64,000 nt of DNA, from IMG/VR virus record IMGVR_UViG_3300026263_000200. One strand, 5' to 3'. This stretch comes from a virus. The notes beneath the pieces were generated by a model, which had not been told where the DNA came from, did not search any database, and saw nothing but the letters and a program-made list of their open reading frames with translations. The translations under genes and the position numbers were made by a program. Below, piece after piece: positions 10,232 through 64,000 of the stretch. Within the stretch, counting starts at the first letter, position 1. Each line of letters starts with the position of its first letter.

Positions 10232-10239
10232 TATAAATA
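10232..10239 (+). promoter_or_regulatory. Late promoter TATAAATA (g3)
   Basis: Exact consensus. Confidence 0.75.
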
Positions 10240-10244
10240 GTACT

Positions 10245-10871
10245 ATGACAATAAAACAATCATACAAAAGGCAACCAACAAAGTTTGATTATGCCGCTCC
10301 AACGCAGTTTAGATTTACTATTACAAAACTTCCTAAAGTAGAATTCTTTTGTACAGCAGTAAATTTACCAGGCATAACATTAGAAGGTAATATGGAACAG
10401 GAAACGCCATTGAAAAATATACCTTTACCTGGAGATAAATTAGCATACAGTCCATTAAGTATGGATTTTATGGTTGATGAAAATTTAGAAAACTATAGAG
10501 AGATACACGGTTGGTTAACTGGTTTAGGTTTTCCTAAAGATAGAGCACAATTTAGAAATTTACTTGGTGGTGGTGCAGATAGATTCCCAACATCTACTGG
10601 TGCAAAGCAAGAAACAGACGCAGGTATTGTAAGAAACGAAGCAGGTGCCACAGGTGCTGTTTATTCAGACGCAACATTAAGTATATTAACAAGCAAAAAT
10701 ACAACAAATATTCAAGTCAGATTTGCAGACGTATTTCCTACAGCATTATCTGGATTGAATTATAATCAACAACAAACGGATGTAAACTATTTAATAGCAA
10801 CAGTAACTTTCCAATACAAAATATATGAATTTGCAGAAGGAAGTGGTAAGGTAACCGAAACAATTACGTAA
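10245..10871 (+). CDS. g3: Tail completion / tube terminator protein gp3-like
   Basis: PKVEFFCTAVNLPGI, FMVDENLENYREIHGW, YSDATL; typical position between g23 and uvsY. Confidence 0.85.
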   Translation: MTIKQSYKRQPTKFDYAAPTQFRFTITKLPKVEFFCTAVNLPGITLEGNMEQETPLKNIPLPGDKLAYSPLSMDFMVDENLENYREIHGWLTGLGFPKDRAQFRNLLGGGADRFPTSTGAKQETDAGIVRNEAGATGAVYSDATLSILTSKNTTNIQVRFADVFPTALSGLNYNQQQTDVNYLIATVTFQYKIYEFAEGSGKVTETIT

Positions 10872-51495: not shown

Positions 51496-51511
51496 CCTTA
51501 TAAATAGTACT

Positions 51512-53029
51512 ATGACATATTTAAAACAAAAACCAGGTAGTATTGAAGAAGTAATTGCTAAACAGCAAGAACAATATCAAGACCCTAAATACAAAGCAAA
51601 ATTTGACGAAGAATTAAAAAATACTATGGGTGGTATTGGTTCAATGACACCTAAAGAAAAGATAGCATTTTTTAATAAAGTGGAAGAAGAATGGAAACCT
51701 TCTACTGGAAAACACGCTGATGAACAGTTGATGAAAGACTTTATTGACAAAGGTGGAAAAGTAGAAAAGATACCTGAAAATAAAAGAGCATATAATGGCA
51801 ATAGAATTAAACCTCATTTAGCAAACAAAAAGAATTTAGCAAGACAAGAAGCAATGACGGAAGAAACTGTTTCAGAAGCAATGCCAGGTGGAGCTAATTC
51901 ATCTTCAAGACGAGGAAGTGCTTCAAGTGGTGTTAGAAAAAAATATAGATTTGGTTATAGAGTTGCTGAAAAACAACCTAAAGGCAAAGATATAGAAGAA
52001 GAATTTTCTCAACAACTAATTAAACAAGCATATGGTATATTAAATGACCCTAGATATAAACAAGGTAATTATACAGGTGCTGTTAATGCTATTGAAAAAC
52101 TTGCAAAAGGATTATCAAAACATCCAGACGTTGCTAACGCATTAAAAAGAGCAAATGAATCAGTAGAACACGAAAGTGCTTTTGCTATTTCAGGTGTAGA
52201 AACACAAAGACCTACAGAAGATATGCAAGAAACAATAGACGCAGGCGAAGTATCTAAAATGAAAGACAAGAAAAAAGAAGTAGATTTTAAAACTGCTAAC
52301 GTATCTACTACTGAAACGATTGACGCTGGAGAAGTTTCTAAAATGGCAGATAAGAAAAAAGAAGTTAAGTTTAGTACAGCAAATGTATCTACTACAGAAG
52401 ATAAAAAAGATCCAAAAAAAGAAGTTATTGGTACTGATAAATCAGAACCATCAGCAAATTTAGAAAATATTATCAGAAATATTTGGAATAAAGCAGCTAA
52501 TGAAACAGCAGAAAGAGGAGACTCTCAACTGTTGCCTACAAGAAATGAAAGCAAAATTCCACCTATTGCAAAAGATAATAAACCAGGTGTAAAGATTGCA
52601 AAGATAAGAGCGACAAGGGATGCTAAAGATGGTAAAGAACCAGGTGCTAAAGACCCTACAGCAATGGAGAAACAAATTTTAACATTGCAAGGTCAAGTTA
52701 ATGTATTAAAAACAAAATTAGAAAATGAAAAAGGTAAAGTAGTTAAACCTGTTGCAGATAAAGAAACAGGTCAAGTACCTTTAACAGTTGGACTAGCACA
52801 TAAACTTTTAAAAGATAAAGCTGAAAAAGAAGACGATAAAAAAGAAACTAAAACAGAAGCAGTCAGTCCTTATAAATTAAAATATGAAACTTTAAGAGCA
52901 AGAATTAAAGAAACAAAAGAAAAAGAAAAACTTGCTAAAAAGAAAGATGAACCTACCAAGGGTAGAACAATGACTGGAAATCCTGCTTCAAAAGTAAATA
53001 CAGATCCAGAGATAAACTATAATACCTAG
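51512..53029 (+). CDS. Charged low-complexity protein, probable internal head/core protein
   Basis: TATAAATA at 51499-51506; K/E-rich; internal repeat. Confidence 0.6.
   Translation: MTYLKQKPGSIEEVIAKQQEQYQDPKYKAKFDEELKNTMGGIGSMTPKEKIAFFNKVEEEWKPSTGKHADEQLMKDFIDKGGKVEKIPENKRAYNGNRIKPHLANKKNLARQEAMTEETVSEAMPGGANSSSRRGSASSGVRKKYRFGYRVAEKQPKGKDIEEEFSQQLIKQAYGILNDPRYKQGNYTGAVNAIEKLAKGLSKHPDVANALKRANESVEHESAFAISGVETQRPTEDMQETIDAGEVSKMKDKKKEVDFKTANVSTTETIDAGEVSKMADKKKEVKFSTANVSTTEDKKDPKKEVIGTDKSEPSANLENIIRNIWNKAANETAERGDSQLLPTRNESKIPPIAKDNKPGVKIAKIRATRDAKDGKEPGAKDPTAMEKQILTLQGQVNVLKTKLENEKGKVVKPVADKETGQVPLTVGLAHKLLKDKAEKEDDKKETKTEAVSPYKLKYETLRARIKETKEKEKLAKKKDEPTKGRTMTGNPASKVNTDPEINYNT
52229..52396 (+). 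repeat. Tandem 84-bp (28-aa) in-frame duplication
   Basis: ETIDAGEVSKM(K/A)DKKKEV(D/K)F(K/S)TANVSTT twice. Confidence 0.9.
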
Positions 53030-57443: not shown

Positions 57444-57920
57444 ATGTTTGGCACAATGAAAATGGTTATGGTTGTAATAATGATAGGCGGACTTGCTGGA
57501 GCAGGTATGTATGTTATGAAATTACGATCCGATAATGCTATTTTAAAAGCCAATCAAATTAAACTTGAAGAAGCGGTGAGTTCCCAAAAGGAACTCATTG
57601 CTAAACAGCAAGCAGACTTCAAAGAAATTTTAGAAGCAAATAAAAAATTTAACGAATTAGTTACCGCTCTTAAAAAAGATATAGATGATTTAGATAATAG
57701 ATTTAACAAAGGTGGAAGAGATTTTGGTAAACTTGCAATAGAAAAAACAGAAGCAATTGAAAGAATAATTAATGGCGCAAGTGATAAAGCATTAAGATGT
57801 GTTGAGATAGCAGGTGGGGCACCACTTACTGAACAAGAACTTAACGCAACTGTAAAATCAGAAATCAATAGAGAGTGTCCGAGTATCGCTAACCCGAATT
57901 ATGTACCGTATAATAATTAG
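57444..57920 (+). CDS. Membrane-anchored coiled-coil protein (i-spanin candidate)
   Basis: N-terminal TM, long coiled coil, C-terminal Cys residues. Confidence 0.55.
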   Translation: MFGTMKMVMVVIMIGGLAGAGMYVMKLRSDNAILKANQIKLEEAVSSQKELIAKQQADFKEILEANKKFNELVTALKKDIDDLDNRFNKGGRDFGKLAIEKTEAIERIINGASDKALRCVEIAGGAPLTEQELNATVKSEINRECPSIANPNYVPYNN

Positions 57921-58269
57921 TATATTAGTAGTATTGTTTTTAACAAGTTGCTCAGGTGTTAAAAAGTTAAGTATCTTCAAAGAAGAAGTACCTAGACAGA
58001 AATTAGATTTAGTTAAACCTACTATGCCTGAACTAGAAAAGTTGAAATGGATTATTATTACTTCTGATAATGCAGAAGAAGTATTCCAAAAGATGGAAGC
58101 AGCAGGACTTGATCCAGTAATATTTGGTTTAAGTGATAAAGACTTCCAATTAATCGCAAAAAACTTTGCTCAAATAAGAGCACACTTGAAACACACTAAT
58201 GATTTACTTGACCAATATAAAGAGTATTATGAACCAGACGATAAGAAAAATGAAAAGGAGAAAGAGTAA
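57901..58269 (+). CDS. Lipoprotein (o-spanin candidate)
   Basis: Lipobox LTSC; overlaps the 3' end of the i-spanin candidate. Confidence 0.55.
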   Translation: MYRIIISILVVLFLTSCSGVKKLSIFKEEVPRQKLDLVKPTMPELEKLKWIIITSDNAEEVFQKMEAAGLDPVIFGLSDKDFQLIAKNFAQIRAHLKHTNDLLDQYKEYYEPDDKKNEKEKE

Positions 58270-58461: not shown

Positions 58462-58599
58462 ATGGAAAATTGTAAGAACTGTAGTCACGAAGCACATTGT
58501 CCAGAAACTTGTTTTAAATGTGATTGTAAAAAATGTGATTGTTCAATTTGTGAGAAACCAAGACCTAATGTAAAAACAGGAGATGAAATAGTACAGTAA
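58462..58599 (+). CDS. Cys/His-rich microprotein (metallothionein-like)
   Basis: MENCKNCSHEAHCPETCFKCDCKKCDCSIC: 9 Cys and 2 His in 30 aa; read manually. Confidence 0.55.
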   Translation: MENCKNCSHEAHCPETCFKCDCKKCDCSICEKPRPNVKTGDEIVQ

Positions 58600-58763
58600 T
58601 GGATAGTGAAGCAGTATTAATGTTGAGTAGATTGTGGCCAATGCTAGTAGCATTTATATTATTAATAGTTACTTTAGCACAATCACACTATAGAATTAAA
58701 GTGTTGGAAGAGAAAATTAAAGTAGCATTTGAACTTATTAATAAGTTAACAGACAAAAAATGA
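58599..58763 (+). CDS. Small single-TM protein (54 aa)
   Basis: LWPMLVAFILLIVTLA then a coiled coil; TAATG coupling. Confidence 0.55.
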   Translation: MDSEAVLMLSRLWPMLVAFILLIVTLAQSHYRIKVLEEKIKVAFELINKLTDKK

Positions 58764-58838: not shown

Positions 58839-60467
58839 CTATTTAATAGAATAACAATTAATCTTTTCTTTTTTACCTTTAACAGTACAAATACCTAGTT
58901 TATAAAACTTAAAGTCTAAATCTTTTTTAGTATTTTGAGATATTACTATTGTAGTATTGAAATCTTTACTCTTACCTTCCAATCTACTTGCCAAATTAAC
59001 AGCGTCACCAATAACAGAATAATCAAAACGTTGTTCAGACCCCATATTACCTACAAGACACTCGCCAGTATTGATACCTATACCAATGTTTAAAGGTGGG
59101 TCAAACTCTCTACTCTTATTCATCTCCTTAACTGCTCTTCTCATTTGAAATGCAGATAGTACTGCTAGTTTTTTGTGTTCTGGATTATCAAGTGGTGCAT
59201 TCCAAAATGCCATTATACAATCACCCATATACTTATCAATAGTACCACCATTTTTTAATATTATCCCCGTCATTGCAGTTAAAAATTTGTTAACATATCT
59301 GGTAAGTTTTTCTGGATTACCTTTCATAGATTCCGATATAGGAGTAAAGCCACGTATATCAGAAAATAAAAACGTCATTTCTTTTCTTTCACCACCAAGT
59401 TTTAATAGAGATGGATTGTTTTGTAGTTTCTTAACCATATCTGGAGATAGATAGTGTTCAAATTGTTTTTTAATTTGTAGTCTTAATTTATTTTCTTTTG
59501 AATAGTTATTGTATGTTAACTGACCCCATATAATAGAACCTATTACAAGAGGACTAAACCAATCAGTTATGATTAAGTGTTGCGTCCATAGATAAGAACT
59601 TGCAAGTGTTAAATCAAATAAGTATCCACCAAACCATATCGCAGACCACATCACACCACATCTAGGTATAACTATGAGAAAGAATAGAGTACCTAATAAT
59701 ATAAAACCAAATTCAGCATATGGTAACCAATAAGGTCTACTAATAAAATTACCTGACAATAAAGTTTCTGTACTGATTGCCATAATTTCGTGTGTGTTTT
59801 TTAAACCATTAGGAGTAGTTACAAACGTAGAACCTTTGAACGTAGTACCTATGAAAACTATTTTACCTTTTACAGACGACCAATCTTTATCAGTAAAATC
59901 TATTCTAGGAATATGGTGTCTGAAATCTATCCAAATAGTATCTTCTGCTGATGTTTTTGCATTGATAACTTTTAAGATAACTTCAGGTATAGAATTATCA
60001 AGAGGTAATTTTCTTATAGTGCCATCTATATCAACTGGCACACTTACGTTGCCTATTGCTATTGCTTTACGTGAGATACTTTGTAGATTTTTTACTTCAT
60101 CCGTTTCAGTAAGTATGACTGGATATTTTGAAATCATTTTTAAAAACATTTCATCACCACCTAATCTATCTTTATGTGGGAAGACTACTTGAAGAACTAC
60201 TAGAGCGGCACCATTTTTATAAGCATTAATTATGACACGACCAAGTAAATCTCTCTTCCACGGCCATTGCCCATTCTTTTTTAATGCTTTGTCTGATATG
60301 TCTACTAGGACTAAACTCTTTGATTCATAATTTGTACCAAATTTTTGGTAGAAATCAAAGGTGTTTAGTTTTGCTGTTTGTAGTAGTACTGGATTTGATA
60401 AGTATATTCCAAGTAATATAATCAAAGTCAAATATACAGTCCACGATTTAGCCAATATTTTAATCAT
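58839..60467 (-). CDS. Membrane class III adenylate cyclase with CHASE2-like sensor domain
   Basis: VDISD..GQWPWKR (CHASE2), TM helices, FSDIRGFT, IDKYMGDCIMAFW, GNMGSEQRFDYSVIGDAVNLASRLE. Confidence 0.93.
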   Translation of the reverse strand: MIKILAKSWTVYLTLIILLGIYLSNPVLLQTAKLNTFDFYQKFGTNYESKSLVLVDISDKALKKNGQWPWKRDLLGRVIINAYKNGAALVVLQVVFPHKDRLGGDEMFLKMISKYPVILTETDEVKNLQSISRKAIAIGNVSVPVDIDGTIRKLPLDNSIPEVILKVINAKTSAEDTIWIDFRHHIPRIDFTDKDWSSVKGKIVFIGTTFKGSTFVTTPNGLKNTHEIMAISTETLLSGNFISRPYWLPYAEFGFILLGTLFFLIVIPRCGVMWSAIWFGGYLFDLTLASSYLWTQHLIITDWFSPLVIGSIIWGQLTYNNYSKENKLRLQIKKQFEHYLSPDMVKKLQNNPSLLKLGGERKEMTFLFSDIRGFTPISESMKGNPEKLTRYVNKFLTAMTGIILKNGGTIDKYMGDCIMAFWNAPLDNPEHKKLAVLSAFQMRRAVKEMNKSREFDPPLNIGIGINTGECLVGNMGSEQRFDYSVIGDAVNLASRLEGKSKDFNTTIVISQNTKKDLDFKFYKLGICTVKGKKEKINCYSIK

Positions 60468-60491
60468 CTAGTATATTTAGTACAGATATTT

Positions 60492-60499
60492 TATAAATA
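60492..60499 (+). promoter_or_regulatory. Late promoter TATAAATA for the csgF operon
   Basis: Exact consensus in the 55-bp divergent gap. Confidence 0.75.
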
Positions 60500-60522
60500 T
60501 ATACATCAACGAGAGAGAGAAA

Positions 60523-60981
60523 ATGAGATTAATTACCATTATTTTAACAGTATTATTGTTAGGTTCTAGTGCTTATGCAAGTGAATTAGGATTTAAATTC
60601 CATAGTCCATCATTTTCTGGTAATGGAAAGTCATCACACTATCTAACGATAGAGAACATAGAGAAAACTAGAAAAGACGCTATAAAAGCAGCAAATAAAG
60701 CGGCGGCAGATAAAGCGGCGGCAGATGCTAAATCAACATCTATAGCAAAATTCAAAGCAAATATAGAGTCAAGATTTTATACTGCTCTTGCAAAACAAAT
60801 TACAGACAATGTATTTGGTACTGATGGTCTTCAACAAGACTCAGGTACATTTACAAATCCAGTTGGTGGAGAAACAGTTGAGTGGACAACACCATCAGGT
60901 ACAGGTAATGTCGTAGTAACTGTCACGGAGTCCGATGGAACTGTAACGACATTTACAATGCCTAAAGAGGACAATTCGTAA
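60523..60981 (+). CDS. csgF: Curli assembly protein CsgF-like
   Basis: Signal peptide, then SELGFKFHSPSFSGNG (CsgF-type N-terminal motif); upstream of csgG. Confidence 0.8.
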   Translation: MRLITIILTVLLLGSSAYASELGFKFHSPSFSGNGKSSHYLTIENIEKTRKDAIKAANKAAADKAAADAKSTSIAKFKANIESRFYTALAKQITDNVFGTDGLQQDSGTFTNPVGGETVEWTTPSGTGNVVVTVTESDGTVTTFTMPKEDNS

Positions 60982-62135
60982 TGTTTAAATACATAAGTAT
61001 ATTTTTACTAACATTATTGTTAGTTGGATGTGCAGGTAAACCAAAGTTTGATATAAGAACTCAAACAGTTGCTTATAAAGACTTGTCAGTTATATCAGCA
61101 CCGAAAGGTGAACCAATTATAATTGCTGTCTATGACTTTTTAGATATGACAGGACAAAAGAAACCTGGTGGCAACTTTGCGTCTATGAGTACAGCAGTAA
61201 CTCAAGGTTCATATCAGTTGTTGATTAAAGCATTACAAGACGCAGGCGAAGGCAAATGGTTTAGAGTAGTAGAACGAGCAAGTTTACCAAGTCTATTACA
61301 AGAAAGAAAATTAATACGTTCTACAAGACAACAAGTTAATGGAGAAGGTGCAGAACCATTACCACCATTACTATTTGCAGGTGCATATATAACAGGTGGT
61401 ATTGTAGGATATGATAGTGATATTAAATCAGGTGGTTTAGGTGCTAGAATATTAGGTATTCAAAGCAACAAACAATTTAGACAAGATATAGTTACTATTA
61501 TATTAAGACTAGTCAATGTACAAACTGGTGAAGTTGTACTATCAACAACAGTTGAAAAGACTATTGTATCAACAATGACTGGTGGAGATATATTCAAGTA
61601 CTTTGATACTGATACAATGTTATTAGAAGTTGAAGCAGGATATGCTAAGAACGAACCAGTTACACTTGCAGTTAGAAAAGCAATTGAAAAAGGTGTAGTT
61701 GATGTTATTAATTTAGGTGCAAATAAAGGACTATGGGAGTTTGCTGTTGAAATAGTACCAACAAAAGATTTAAAAGTAGTACAAGATGATATTACAGTTG
61801 ATATGGGCGAAGTAATGCCAGAAAAAACTTATGAAGACTTTAAGAAAGAAAAGAAAGCTAGAAAAGAATTAAAGAAAGCACAAAAACTTGAAGTAAAAAA
61901 TTATAATAAAGCAAATGGAACAAAGTTTAAAACTTGGGACGAATATCAAGCACATTTAGAACATTTAGCGGCACTTGAAGCTAAAGAAATAGAAAAAGAA
62001 GAACGTAAGAACGGTATACAAGATAAAATAACAGAAGAAGAAGAGTGGAACCAAGTAGACGAAACAGTAGAGGAGAACAAGTCAGATGAAAAAGATAGTA
62101 ATGGCAATAGTGATTCTTCTAGCGACAACAATTAA
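60981..62135 (+). CDS. csgG: Curli secretion channel CsgG-like lipoprotein with charged C-terminal extension
   Basis: Lipobox LVGC; IAVYDFLDMTGQKK, STAVTQG, WFRVVER, LLQERKLIR, GGIVGYD, NEPVTLAVRKAIE. Confidence 0.92.
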   Translation: MFKYISIFLLTLLLVGCAGKPKFDIRTQTVAYKDLSVISAPKGEPIIIAVYDFLDMTGQKKPGGNFASMSTAVTQGSYQLLIKALQDAGEGKWFRVVERASLPSLLQERKLIRSTRQQVNGEGAEPLPPLLFAGAYITGGIVGYDSDIKSGGLGARILGIQSNKQFRQDIVTIILRLVNVQTGEVVLSTTVEKTIVSTMTGGDIFKYFDTDTMLLEVEAGYAKNEPVTLAVRKAIEKGVVDVINLGANKGLWEFAVEIVPTKDLKVVQDDITVDMGEVMPEKTYEDFKKEKKARKELKKAQKLEVKNYNKANGTKFKTWDEYQAHLEHLAALEAKEIEKEERKNGIQDKITEEEEWNQVDETVEENKSDEKDSNGNSDSSSDNN

Positions 62136-63177
62136 TTGTTTCGCAGGTAATTCAGTTTATATCCAACAAGATAATCAAGACAGCGACGGATCAATCTTTA
62201 TAAAACAAGATGGTTCAGGTAATACTTTTGGGTATTCAACATCATATCCATTTAAAGTAAGTGGAGAGAACATCACAATCGTTATAAAACAAATAGGTGA
62301 TAATAATAAAACAGATTATTCAAATCACTTGACTTTTTATGGTGAGGATATGACTTTAGATTATACAGCAACTGGTGATGGTAATAAATTAAGAATAGAT
62401 AGTGATGATACGGATGCTACTGGACATTATTTAGACCACGATATTACAGGTGATTCAAATGTAGTAGATTATGATACCTGGGGAGATGATTCAACAAATT
62501 TCAATGTTGATTTAGATATTACTGGAGACTCAAATACATTTTGGGTACAGAATAGAGGAGATAATCACTTCTTATATGTTCTTATATCAGGTGATAGTAA
62601 TACCGTAGAGTGGTATAGTACAACAGATTCAGTAGGGTTTAATACAAACTCTAACAAGGCAATTGGTCCACAATCAACATCACACGGACAGTTTGCAGAC
62701 AGTTCAGGTAGTGAAGGTGCAAGTGCAGACATTTATATTATTGGTAACTCAAATGTAATACATACTTCAACATATGGTACAGGTAACTATCAACTACACG
62801 ACATTATAGGTTCTTCAAACCTTTTAGATATACACTCTAGTTACACTGGTTCTGATACAGACCCATATGGAGACTCAATGATTATATCAGGCGATAGTAA
62901 TTATTTAAGGACTTATATATCTGGTGATAGTAATACAATAAGATTACATATGGCAGGTGGAAATAATACTGCTAAAATTTATCTTTATACAGATAGTTCA
63001 GTAATAAACTTTGCTCAAACAGGTGGTGGCAACACAGGTCAAGTTACTATATCAGGTGATTCAATTTACGATTACACATTAAACTTTTCACAAAATGGAT
63101 CCGATAATTGTACATATTCGTACAACAGAAACAATCAAACAGCAGATGTAACTGCTACAGTATCAAACGGATGTTAA
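62086..63177 (+). CDS. Secreted curlin-like repeat (beta-solenoid) protein
   Basis: Signal peptide; repeated Q.G..N and (I)(T/S)GDSN units; D/S/G/N/T-rich. Confidence 0.7.
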   Translation: MKKIVMAIVILLATTINCFAGNSVYIQQDNQDSDGSIFIKQDGSGNTFGYSTSYPFKVSGENITIVIKQIGDNNKTDYSNHLTFYGEDMTLDYTATGDGNKLRIDSDDTDATGHYLDHDITGDSNVVDYDTWGDDSTNFNVDLDITGDSNTFWVQNRGDNHFLYVLISGDSNTVEWYSTTDSVGFNTNSNKAIGPQSTSHGQFADSSGSEGASADIYIIGNSNVIHTSTYGTGNYQLHDIIGSSNLLDIHSSYTGSDTDPYGDSMIISGDSNYLRTYISGDSNTIRLHMAGGNNTAKIYLYTDSSVINFAQTGGGNTGQVTISGDSIYDYTLNFSQNGSDNCTYSYNRNNQTADVTATVSNGC

Positions 63178-64000
63178 ATGAAACTATTTCATAATCCTTG
63201 GGAAAAATGGGCGATAATAATTTGTGTTACTGTATTATTAGTATTAGGAATATCATCAGCTAAATCTCAAATAACAAGTCCAAAAGTTGGCGAAGTCATA
63301 GGTCAAATGGGTACGACTTGGAATGAAAGAGAAGGATCAACTCAAAATACCTCAATGGGTTATGAGTTGCAGATGAATGACTTTTTACAAACAGGTGAAG
63401 ATGGTGGTATGATATTATCTTATGTTGATAATACTAAATTTACAATGGGACCAAATACAGAATTAACTATTGATGAATTTGCTTTTGATACTTCTGTTGT
63501 ACCAATAGAAATTGCAATGAACATATCGGTTAATGTTGGTACATTTACATATGAATCAGGTCAAGTATCTACATTAGGTGGAGAAGTTAATATTAATGCT
63601 GGTAATGCTACAATTACAGTACAAGGTACTGCTTTTTCAGGTACGGTAACATCTTCAGGTCAAGCAACTATTACTTTGTTGCCAGATAGTTCTGGTGCAG
63701 TAGGACAAGTAACTGTATCCAATGACGCAGGTTCTCAAACAATAACTAACGCTTACAATTCAGTAACCGTTTTATCAAATGACTTAGCACCAACACCTCC
63801 AAAAATAGAAACTAATAAACAAGATATTATTGAGTTAGATGAATTTGAAGAAGAAATAAAAGATGAAAGTCAAAAACATTTTGGTGATATGGATTCAAAA
63901 TCTGAAATGTCTAAAGAAGAATCTGAAGCACAGGAGATGGAAGAGGCAATCATAAATGAAGAAGTAAGTATAGTAGAAGATAGTAATACAATTGTTGCTA
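63178..64000 (+). CDS. FecR-domain periplasmic protein (runs off the window end)
   Basis: Read manually: N-terminal hydrophobic segment, DFLQTGEDG...DNTKFTMGPNTELTIDEF...ATITVQGTAF, then an acidic region. Confidence 0.8.
   Translation, partial: MKLFHNPWEKWAIIICVTVLLVLGISSAKSQITSPKVGEVIGQMGTTWNEREGSTQNTSMGYELQMNDFLQTGEDGGMILSYVDNTKFTMGPNTELTIDEFAFDTSVVPIEIAMNISVNVGTFTYESGQVSTLGGEVNINAGNATITVQGTAFSGTVTSSGQATITLLPDSSGAVGQVTVSNDAGSQTITNAYNSVTVLSNDLAPTPPKIETNKQDIIELDEFEEEIKDESQKHFGDMDSKSEMSKEESEAQEMEEAIINEEVSIVEDSNTIVA

Follow-up and report, generated by a model that had tools for sequence, protein, structure and literature searches.

The end (positions 58839-64000) of a 64,000-nt stretch of viral DNA (IMG/VR record IMGVR_UViG_3300026263_000200; the whole analysed stretch is referred to as the window) carries the curli-type secretion genes csgF, csgG and a curlin gene next to genes for a FecR-fold protein and for a class III cyclase with a CHASE2 sensor domain. 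These genes very probably constitute one functional module. The explanation that best accounts for them overall, and which is held with about even confidence, is that the T8SS (type VIII secretion system), the FecR protein and the cyclase of these pelagimyophages form a single, late-expressed envelope module assembled from two bacterial parts. The window is a piece of a T4-like myophage: it encodes a T4-type DNA polymerase as well as a tail sheath, its GC content is about 31%, and almost every gene lies on the plus strand. Its cultured relatives are Pelagibacter phage HTVC008M, the only one at the DNA level, and, at the protein level, Methylophilales phage Melnitz. The parts of the module are laid out as follows:

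58839-60467, minus strand: CHASE2-class III cyclase, 542 aa; Pfam CHASE2 1.2e-27, Guanylate_cyc 6.8e-25
60468-60522, no strand assigned: divergent control region, 55 bp; candidate late promoters facing csgF and the cyclase
60523-60981, plus strand: CsgF-like protein with Sec signal peptide, 152 aa; Pfam CsgF 1.8e-12
60981-62135, plus strand: CsgG outer-membrane channel lipoprotein, 384 aa; Pfam CsgG 1.4e-49
62086-63177, plus strand: secreted CsgA-like curlin beta-solenoid, 363 aa; profile and structural matches
63178-64000, plus strand: secreted FecR-fold protein, N-terminal 274 aa; open at the 3' end, past the window edge

Signal peptides were found on all four plus-strand proteins (CsgF, CsgG, curlin and FecR). 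The csgF stop overlaps the csgG start, and the start of the curlin gene overlaps the 3' end of csgG by 50 nt. An earlier note on this DNA had described the cyclase (minus strand) and csgF-csgG-curlin-FecR (plus strand) as diverging from a 55-bp gap, a layout that the open reading frames match exactly.

Retention of the gene set was followed in two collections of phage loci, one anchored on the cyclase (80 IMG/VR loci, 36 of them with at least 6.5 kb of upstream sequence) and the other on CsgG (79 loci, 28 with enough flank for the cyclase and 55 with at least 3 kb downstream). CsgG and FecR accompanied the cyclase in 35 of the 36 loci with sufficient flank, and in the CsgG-anchored collection the cyclase was present in 28/28 and FecR in 55/55 such loci. 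The earlier note had proposed co-occurrence as a check on its reading, and in nearly every flanked phage locus the cyclase, FecR and csgF/csgG do indeed stand together. HTVC008M (gp014-019) and Melnitz (genes 99-104) show the usual order, csgF-csgG-curlin-FecR-(second curlin)-cyclase with all genes on one strand, and gene order is kept across identities from 35% to 95%. Within the clade to which the window belongs the cyclase is inverted and lies between a small membrane-protein gene and csgF, with adjacency retained. All components of the viral T8SS-FecR-adenylate cyclase cluster (PMC9599517), namely csgF, csgG, curlin, FecR and cyclase, are co-located in the window, in matching order but for the inverted cyclase; the small upstream proteins labelled "HK" in that paper were not detected there.

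The cyclase has the architecture of a CHASE2 receptor of the class III cyclase type. Pfam matches assign residues 15-260 to CHASE2 (97.6 bits) and residues 362-541 to Guanylate_cyc (88.2 bits), and hydrophobic segments occur at residues 1-31 and 247-280, giving an N-terminal transmembrane (TM) segment, a periplasmic CHASE2 domain, a hydrophobic block of TM segments from about residue 247 and a cytoplasmic, C-terminal catalytic domain (362-541). Across 36 cyclase relatives D370, K412, D416, N491 and R495 were invariant, and S484 was at least 90% conserved. We take D370 and D416 to be the metal-binding aspartates, K412 the substrate lysine, and N491 and R495 the transition-state residues; Lys412/Ser484 is presumably the adenine-type pattern of class IIIb cyclases. 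Judged by this conservation, the catalytic residues are intact and of adenylate type, which bears out the intact motifs described in the earlier note.

Judged by sequence, the secretion genes represent a minimal complete curli set: the channel CsgG, the adjacent CsgF and, bearing a signal peptide, a secreted subunit in the form of a CsgA-like curlin. CsgF scored 48 bits against a Pfam cut-off of 25.8, with the whole profile covered; a phmmer search of the PDB with CsgF did not match the solved CsgF chains. CsgG scored 168.7 bits against a cut-off of 20.8; its alignment with the E. coli CsgG structures is full-length (E 3e-49), and it retains both the Cys of its lipobox (LVGC) and the constriction Asn-Phe pair. 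Its C-terminus is extended by about 125 aa of low-complexity sequence rich in Lys and Glu (residues 254-384; positions 61740-62135), which is missing from E. coli CsgG and from CsgG of the HTVC008M type (280-300 aa). The host family is said to have no T8SS genes (PMC7029224, PMC9599517).

The 363-aa curlin consists of a signal peptide and GDSN-type repeats. It gave no Pfam match, Curlin_rpt going undetected, and a Foldseek search of the PDB with its model returned nothing at E <= 0.001. A profile built from this protein and 14 relatives matched CsgA of Pontibacter (8c50, E 1.6e-8) and of E. coli (8enq, E 1.4e-3), and the AlphaFold2 (AF2) model is a strand-turn-strand solenoid (pLDDT 69.7, pTM 0.74). 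CsgA surfaced among structural comparisons only in an exhaustive VIA-align search, in which 8c50 was the top match (Z 25.5 over 297 residues, 21% identity, root-mean-square deviation 9.2); generic beta-helices came next at Z of about 17, some 8 units lower. The profile and structural matches together uphold the "curlin-like" call made in the earlier note. The protein is homologous to HTVC008M gp016 and gp018, both "curlin-associated" genes, and gp018 itself contains Curlin_rpt above the cut-off.

The FecR protein of the window scored 21.6 bits against Pfam FecR, just below the 24-bit cut-off, and its aligned relatives scored 35.8 and 39.3 bits. An AF2 model of the 274 residues within the window (pLDDT 82.8) shows the beta-sandwich of the FecR domain (PF04773), and Foldseek matched this model to 4m0h (E 1.5e-4) and to the C-terminal signalling domain of PupR (6ovk_R, E 1.2e-3), both with probability 1.00. 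The model confirms the FecR assignment made earlier. A weaker and short match, to the domain by which an RTX adhesin is anchored at the cell surface (5ix9, 63 columns), is treated as a lead only. A profile search against the PDB gave marginal matches only. The full-length protein was read from a 95%-identical relative (L003:5014-7158, minus strand); the nearest record, G001, stops before the module. In this protein of 714 aa, the signal peptide and the FecR fold are followed by a long acidic middle rich in W, D, E, Y and C and then by a beta-rich end.

All phage FecR proteins, long or short, end in a phi-x-phi-x-Q ... I-x-I-x-Q strand pair, in which the strands are about 20 residues apart (for example DIQILQD...NITIIQTD) and which resembles one curlin repeat. 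The tail of the long FecR protein is grouped with those of the short proteins in alignment A2, and the strand pair was missing from the four Slam-linked bacterial FecR proteins checked. An interpretation of the long form as an obvious FecR-curlin fusion was rejected, as a BLASTP comparison with HTVC008M gp018 was not significant. Nor does the protein have the make-up of a FecR/PupR anti-sigma regulator: a cleavable-type signal peptide is followed directly by the FecR fold, with no cytoplasmic anti-sigma domain. Genes for extracytoplasmic function (ECF) sigma factors and TonB-dependent transducers were likewise not found in the window's cluster or in those of HTVC008M and Melnitz.

The origin of the parts was traced in two sets of bacterial loci, the 80 nearest by cyclase and the 80 nearest by CsgG. 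Among bacteria, the cyclase has its closest relatives in CHASE2 cyclases, mostly from Alphaproteobacteria, and a FecR-domain gene adjoins the cyclase in 35 of these 80 cyclase loci, while neither CsgG nor CsgF was found beside it in any of them. In eight bacterial loci the FecR-CHASE2 pair is accompanied by a tetratricopeptide-repeat (TPR)/Slam-like outer-membrane barrel; these loci include Thalassospira, Ferrovibrio, SAR86, Elusimicrobia and Omnitrophota. The FecR protein of Bradyrhizobium is a 1,700-aa giant with cadherin repeats. Around the nearest bacterial CsgG genes, CsgF was present in 62/80 loci and a relative of the window's curlin in 42/80, and FecR with a cyclase in 3/80, leaving 77 without them. 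The module thus appears to be built of two bacterial parts, an alphaproteobacterial-type curli set and a FecR-CHASE2 cyclase pair.

Of those three CsgG loci, one was discarded as bacterial, being a mis-binned myophage contig. The other two come from Caulobacteraceae metagenome-assembled genomes (MAGs), Jr-25may17-217 and Jr-25may17-209 (L176:9519-15539 and L182:8310-14367), and hold the complete module in the order csgF-csgG, two genes of 223 and 247 aa without a Pfam match, FecR and CHASE2 cyclase. These contigs have a GC content of 54-57%, the module being slightly lower (45-53%), and it is flanked by genes ordinary for bacteria (cytochrome c, TetR, amidohydrolase, acyl-CoA dehydrogenase). 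In a tree made by quick search from 39 chosen rows and rooted at the midpoint, phage and Caulobacteraceae cyclases formed one clade (SH-aLRT 100) apart from those of other bacteria; this clade branches as a polytomy and gives no direction of transfer. Phage-type modules were also encountered in contigs filed under MAGs (L171, L215 and L246-L253) labelled Rhodobacterales, Pirellulales, Saprospirales, Synechococcus, Planctomycetaceae, Pelagibacter, Sphingobacteriales and Flavobacteriaceae. Since L171 has many T4-like genes in common with the window, at least some of these are, by gene content, phage contigs mis-binned with bacteria.

One phage locus departs from the common gene set. In L058:2519-11932 (IMGVR_UViG_3300020404_001806), genes for TolC-like OEP and HlyD-like proteins occupy the place where csgF/csgG would be. 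The small TM pair that commonly precedes csgF (see below), the CHASE2 cyclase and FecR are retained, FecR here forming the N-terminal domain of a cadherin-repeat protein 1,299 aa long. In the tree the L058 cyclase is the sister of that of L030. This locus is a natural exporter swap in which the cyclase was kept.

With regard to timing of expression, the 55-bp control region contains both of the elements that had been pointed out in the earlier note, TATAAATA and a CTAAATA variant:

60492-60499, plus strand: TATAAATA, T4-type late promoter serving csgF, 24 nt 5' of csgF
60474-60480, minus strand: CTAAATA, 6 nt 5' of the cyclase ATG

All 14 copies of TATAAATA in the window lie on the plus strand, a bias with a chance probability of about 1e-4, and most are located between a few and about 100 nt 5' of a start codon; their total count is not above that of shuffles. 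The copy 5' of csgF is kept in 13 related myophage loci, including HTVC008M. CTAAATA was rejected as a general promoter word, as it is depleted in the window (12 copies against 28 expected). At the inverted cyclase, xTAAATA nevertheless occurs exactly 6 nt 5' of the ATG in the window, L003, L004, L006 and L008 while the surrounding bases vary, and it is from this conservation of position that its candidacy as the cyclase promoter derives. Late-type motifs on both divergent sides suggest that both units are expressed late, with a cyclase mRNA that may have almost no leader. Elsewhere in the window TATAAATA stands 5 nt from the ATG of two more genes (10232-10245 and 51499-51512, plus strand), which suggests leaderless late mRNAs for the genes starting at 10245 and 51512.

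A specific mechanism can be put forward tentatively, with somewhat less than even confidence, in which the state of the surface structure or pore sets the cyclase through FecR and CHASE2. Late in infection, the phage would place CsgG/CsgF pores in the host outer membrane and the curlin would be exported. The FecR-fold protein would be tied to this apparatus by its curlin-like C-terminus, which may dock on the fibre or the pore; alternatively, its long acidic linker may be threaded through CsgG. Its N-terminal beta-sandwich would remain periplasmic and act on CHASE2, and the surface structure or the state of the pore would in this way determine cyclase activity and cytoplasmic cAMP. That the parts make up one envelope-spanning unit is reasonable given the adjacency of FecR and CHASE2 in bacteria, the Slam-like barrels that accompany this pair, and the precedent of Sinorhizobium meliloti, whose CHASE2 cyclases CyaK, CyaD1 and CyaD2 need the outer-membrane barrel NsrA to answer the extracellular protein uL2 (PMC7529298, PMC13001267). 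FecR-CHASE2 adjacency has also been documented in a Burkholderia kinase operon (PMC5192318), and the S. meliloti FecR protein SMc02177 is among the genes controlled by cAMP/Clr (PMC5498481). The chain from cell surface to cAMP that the earlier note had drawn across the envelope is thus plausible: its parts belong together, as co-occurrence indicates, while a receiver for the cAMP was not found.

Several points weigh against this explanation and its mechanism. CsgA-type substrates are thought to use an N-terminal signal for entry into CsgG, whereas the mechanism needs the C-terminus of FecR to be outside. Physical contact between the parts of the module is a proposal; a complex prediction for CHASE2 (residues 28-262, alignment A3) with the FecR domain (21-215, A2) scored 0.00 in both runs, a result that counts neither for nor against contact; its CHASE2 piece took in about 12 residues of the next TM segment. 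In the clade of the window, CHASE2 is some 60-90 residues shorter than in the HTVC008M type (compared with L001 gp019). The co-occurrence counts were drawn from related phages and hence indicate strong retention, not independent events. No domain for binding cyclic nucleotide monophosphates (cNMP) turned up in the five related phage records, among them a 171-kb genome that is 100% complete. Among 61 presumed host-family genomes (the family of a Pelagibacter-labelled MAG; a sample, with some genomes incomplete), such a domain was present in three and a class III cyclase in two. Given this scarcity in the host family, a classical cAMP-CRP output in SAR11 is unlikely, and the lack of receptors in phage and host would imply either a new kind of cAMP reader or another role for the cyclase.

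The gene cluster itself, including FecR and the cyclase, is already published. csgF and csgG were reported with three linked unknown genes in pelagimyophages (PMC7029224) and again in Melnitz, where a pore for lysis timing was proposed (PMC9004378); the Melnitz GenBank record annotates all parts of the module. In 2022 a viral T8SS cluster with CsgA/B, FecR and a "histidine kinase" as well as an adenylate cyclase was described in podo- and myo-pelagiphages (PMC9599517). That study reads the genes as producing genuine curli fibres that serve in aggregation, "sibling capture" or superinfection exclusion, while FecR, treated as iron-related, and the cyclase would do no more than regulate expression of the T8SS, as cAMP does via CsgD in Gammaproteobacteria. 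The completeness of the minimal curli set agrees with such a role, as do expression of the genes in metatranscriptomes and their constant ratios over 65 ocean stations (PMC9599517). However, CsgD and a cNMP-binding regulator were not found in the phages, the latter also being rare in the host family, and the T4-type late promoters would be read by the late machinery of the phage itself. The FecR protein is without an anti-sigma domain and the cluster without an ECF sigma factor or TonB-dependent transducer, cultures infected with Melnitz did not clump (PMC9004378), and both the CHASE2 sensor and the curlin-like tail of FecR are left unexplained. Fibre formation under the regulation of FecR and the cyclase is therefore considered improbable as the full account.

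A second alternative, after the pore proposed for Melnitz (PMC9004378), is that of a device for lysis or envelope permeabilisation, in which a gated CsgG/CsgF pore times or executes lysis together with small membrane proteins and spanins, the cyclase acting as input to the timer. The following genes neighbour the module on the cyclase side:

57444-57920, plus strand: i-spanin-like protein, N-terminal TM segment and coiled coil; PHROG Rz-like E 3e-9
57901-58269, plus strand: o-spanin-like protein with lipobox LTSC; PHROG Rz-like E 6e-8; overlaps the i-spanin-like gene
58462-58599, plus strand: 45-aa open reading frame with 9 Cys and 2 His in CxxC/CxC; no family match; between the spanin-like genes and the module
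58599-58763, plus strand: 54-aa single-pass membrane protein with coiled-coil tail; sub-threshold BhlA holin match, E 0.013

The spanin-like pair lies 0.6-1.4 kb from the module and is kept nearby across the clade of the window. A small protein with a TM segment and coiled coil, of which the 54-aa protein is the window's example, is always at the module edge: its homologues are found directly 5' of csgF in the colinear loci L021 (5077-5238) and L022 (4781-4942) and adjoin the cyclase in the inverted clade. It is possibly a holin-like accessory, judging by the weak BhlA match, which falls below threshold and is the sole hint of a holin near the module in the window. The holin and spanin neighbours named in the earlier note were consequently recovered in part, the spanin-like pair through its Rz-like matches and a clear holin not at all.

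Two paralogous proteins of about 90 aa, each with one TM helix and a coiled coil, are encoded directly 5' of csgF in 76 loci (for example L072:5325-5866, L039:5491-6059 and gp011/gp012 of L001). They are probably the "histidine kinase" of PMC9599517, a label that was rejected here because the proteins match no Pfam kinase or other family and are far too short. This pair, the small protein at the module edge and the apparently late expression of the module can all be read in favour of a lysis device. In HTVC008M and Melnitz, however, the module sits between ssb and tail/baseplate genes with no annotated lysis genes close by, and T4-like gene order is conserved for many unrelated genes; a pore, moreover, would have no use for a curlin, FecR or sensor cyclase. 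The link to lysis timing suggested in the earlier note, which draws on nearby spanin-like genes kept in the window's clade, is weak, this neighbourhood being missing in HTVC008M and Melnitz, and a lysis device is decidedly improbable.

Only a slight chance is given to a third alternative, in which the cyclase serves something other than cAMP-receptor signalling, whether by making a different cyclic nucleotide, draining ATP or interfering with the nucleotide-based defence of the host or of competing phages, and in which FecR and the T8SS are activating inputs or unrelated cargo. The dearth of canonical cNMP receptors in the phage records and in most host-family genomes would fit it, and the catalytic domain matches Pycsar PycC models (best E 3e-28). 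That match, though, is limited to the shared class III fold, and no cNMP-activated effector of the kind that accompanies PycC was found adjacent to the cyclase or in related phage records. The nearest bacterial relatives also share their domain type with the cAMP-making CyaD1, CyaD2 and CyaK of S. meliloti (PMC13001267). The Lys412/Ser484 pair, presumably of adenine type, argues in the same direction. Finally, that the curli genes and FecR/cyclase are unrelated cargo of one hypervariable island, as their place in a variable segment that separates the replication genes from the structural ones (PMC7029224) and the 77 bacterial T8SS loci without FecR and cyclase might suggest, is extremely improbable in the face of near-perfect co-occurrence both ways, an order kept from 35% to 95% identity, an adjacency that outlasts inversion, the curlin-like tail on T8SS-linked FecR proteins, and the same six genes together in bacterial MAGs.

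CHASE2 is not named in PMC7029224, PMC9004378 or PMC9599517, and no paper was found holding both CHASE2 and CsgG. New here are the reading of CHASE2 and FecR together, the interchangeability of the exporters, the curlin-like end of FecR, the whole module in bacteria and the absence of a cNMP receptor from the five phage records. FecR-CHASE2 emerges as a portable bacterial pair that recruits varied outer-membrane exporters. A broader and rather unlikely generalisation would be that what CHASE2 receptors sense is the FecR-fold domain, in the periplasm, of a surface protein which an interchangeable outer-membrane channel holds or exports (CsgG/CsgF in phages, Slam-like barrels in several bacteria, or TolC/HlyD-type channels with FecR-cadherin giants in Bradyrhizobium and L058), the pelagiphage module then being an outside-in sensor installed by the phage in a host that lacks cAMP signalling. 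If so, an infected cell would register what happens at its surface, for instance contact, another phage attacking or material left by lysed neighbours, and pass this to a phage-specific reader. The module could also disclose the long-sought input of CHASE2 domains. It is widespread: viral curli proteins make up about 0.1% of assembled ocean viral proteins and are present at all 65 stations (PMC9599517), and the phages that carry it belong to SAR11 and OM43, which rank with the most abundant of known bacteria. The CHASE2 sensor, the portable FecR-CHASE2 pair and the curlin-like tail make HTVC008M and Melnitz experimentally addressable.

Comparison with known systems places the module close to several, each of which shares some of its parts. 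With canonical curli systems (csgBAC/csgDEFG of E. coli; csgF-csgG-curlin of Alphaproteobacteria) the window shares CsgF, a solenoid of CsgA type and a CsgG whose alignment is full-length; it differs in being without CsgE, CsgC and CsgD, in the addition of FecR and the CHASE2 cyclase, and in genes apparently driven by phage late promoters. FecR/PupR anti-sigma regulators have the same periplasmic beta-sandwich (4m0h, 6ovk) but, unlike them, the phage FecR protein is without a membrane anchor beyond its signal peptide. The LysM-FecR/CHASE2 histidine kinase operon "BiofilmReg" of Burkholderia resembles the phage module in placing a secreted FecR protein next to CHASE2, whereas bacterial FecR-CHASE2 pairs are without T8SS genes, their checked FecR proteins have no curlin-like tail, and their output may be a kinase. 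The S. meliloti NsrA-CyaK/CyaD1/CyaD2-Clr cascade offers alphaproteobacterial CHASE2 cyclases that respond via an outer-membrane beta-barrel; there, the partner is NsrA instead of CsgG/CsgF, a curlin is missing, and a CRP-type regulator, Clr, reads the output; Clr is without a counterpart in these phages and has few in host-family genomes.

The closest counterparts are the clusters of HTVC008M (NC_020484, gp014-gp019) and Melnitz (MZ577097, genes 99-104), which comprise the same gene families as the window. In comparison with these, the window's cyclase has been inverted and now sits on the csgF side behind a late-type promoter of its own, its CHASE2 domain is shortened, one long curlin takes the place of two, the FecR protein of the window's type has grown to about 714 aa by an acidic insert, and the two 90-aa TM proteins 5' of csgF are undetectable. 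The shortened CHASE2, the expanded FecR and the single long curlin all occur within the window's clade. All three phages are T4-like, of Kyanoviridae type, and at identities of 43-46% for CsgG and 30-34% for the cyclase they keep csgF, csgG, curlin and FecR in the same order.

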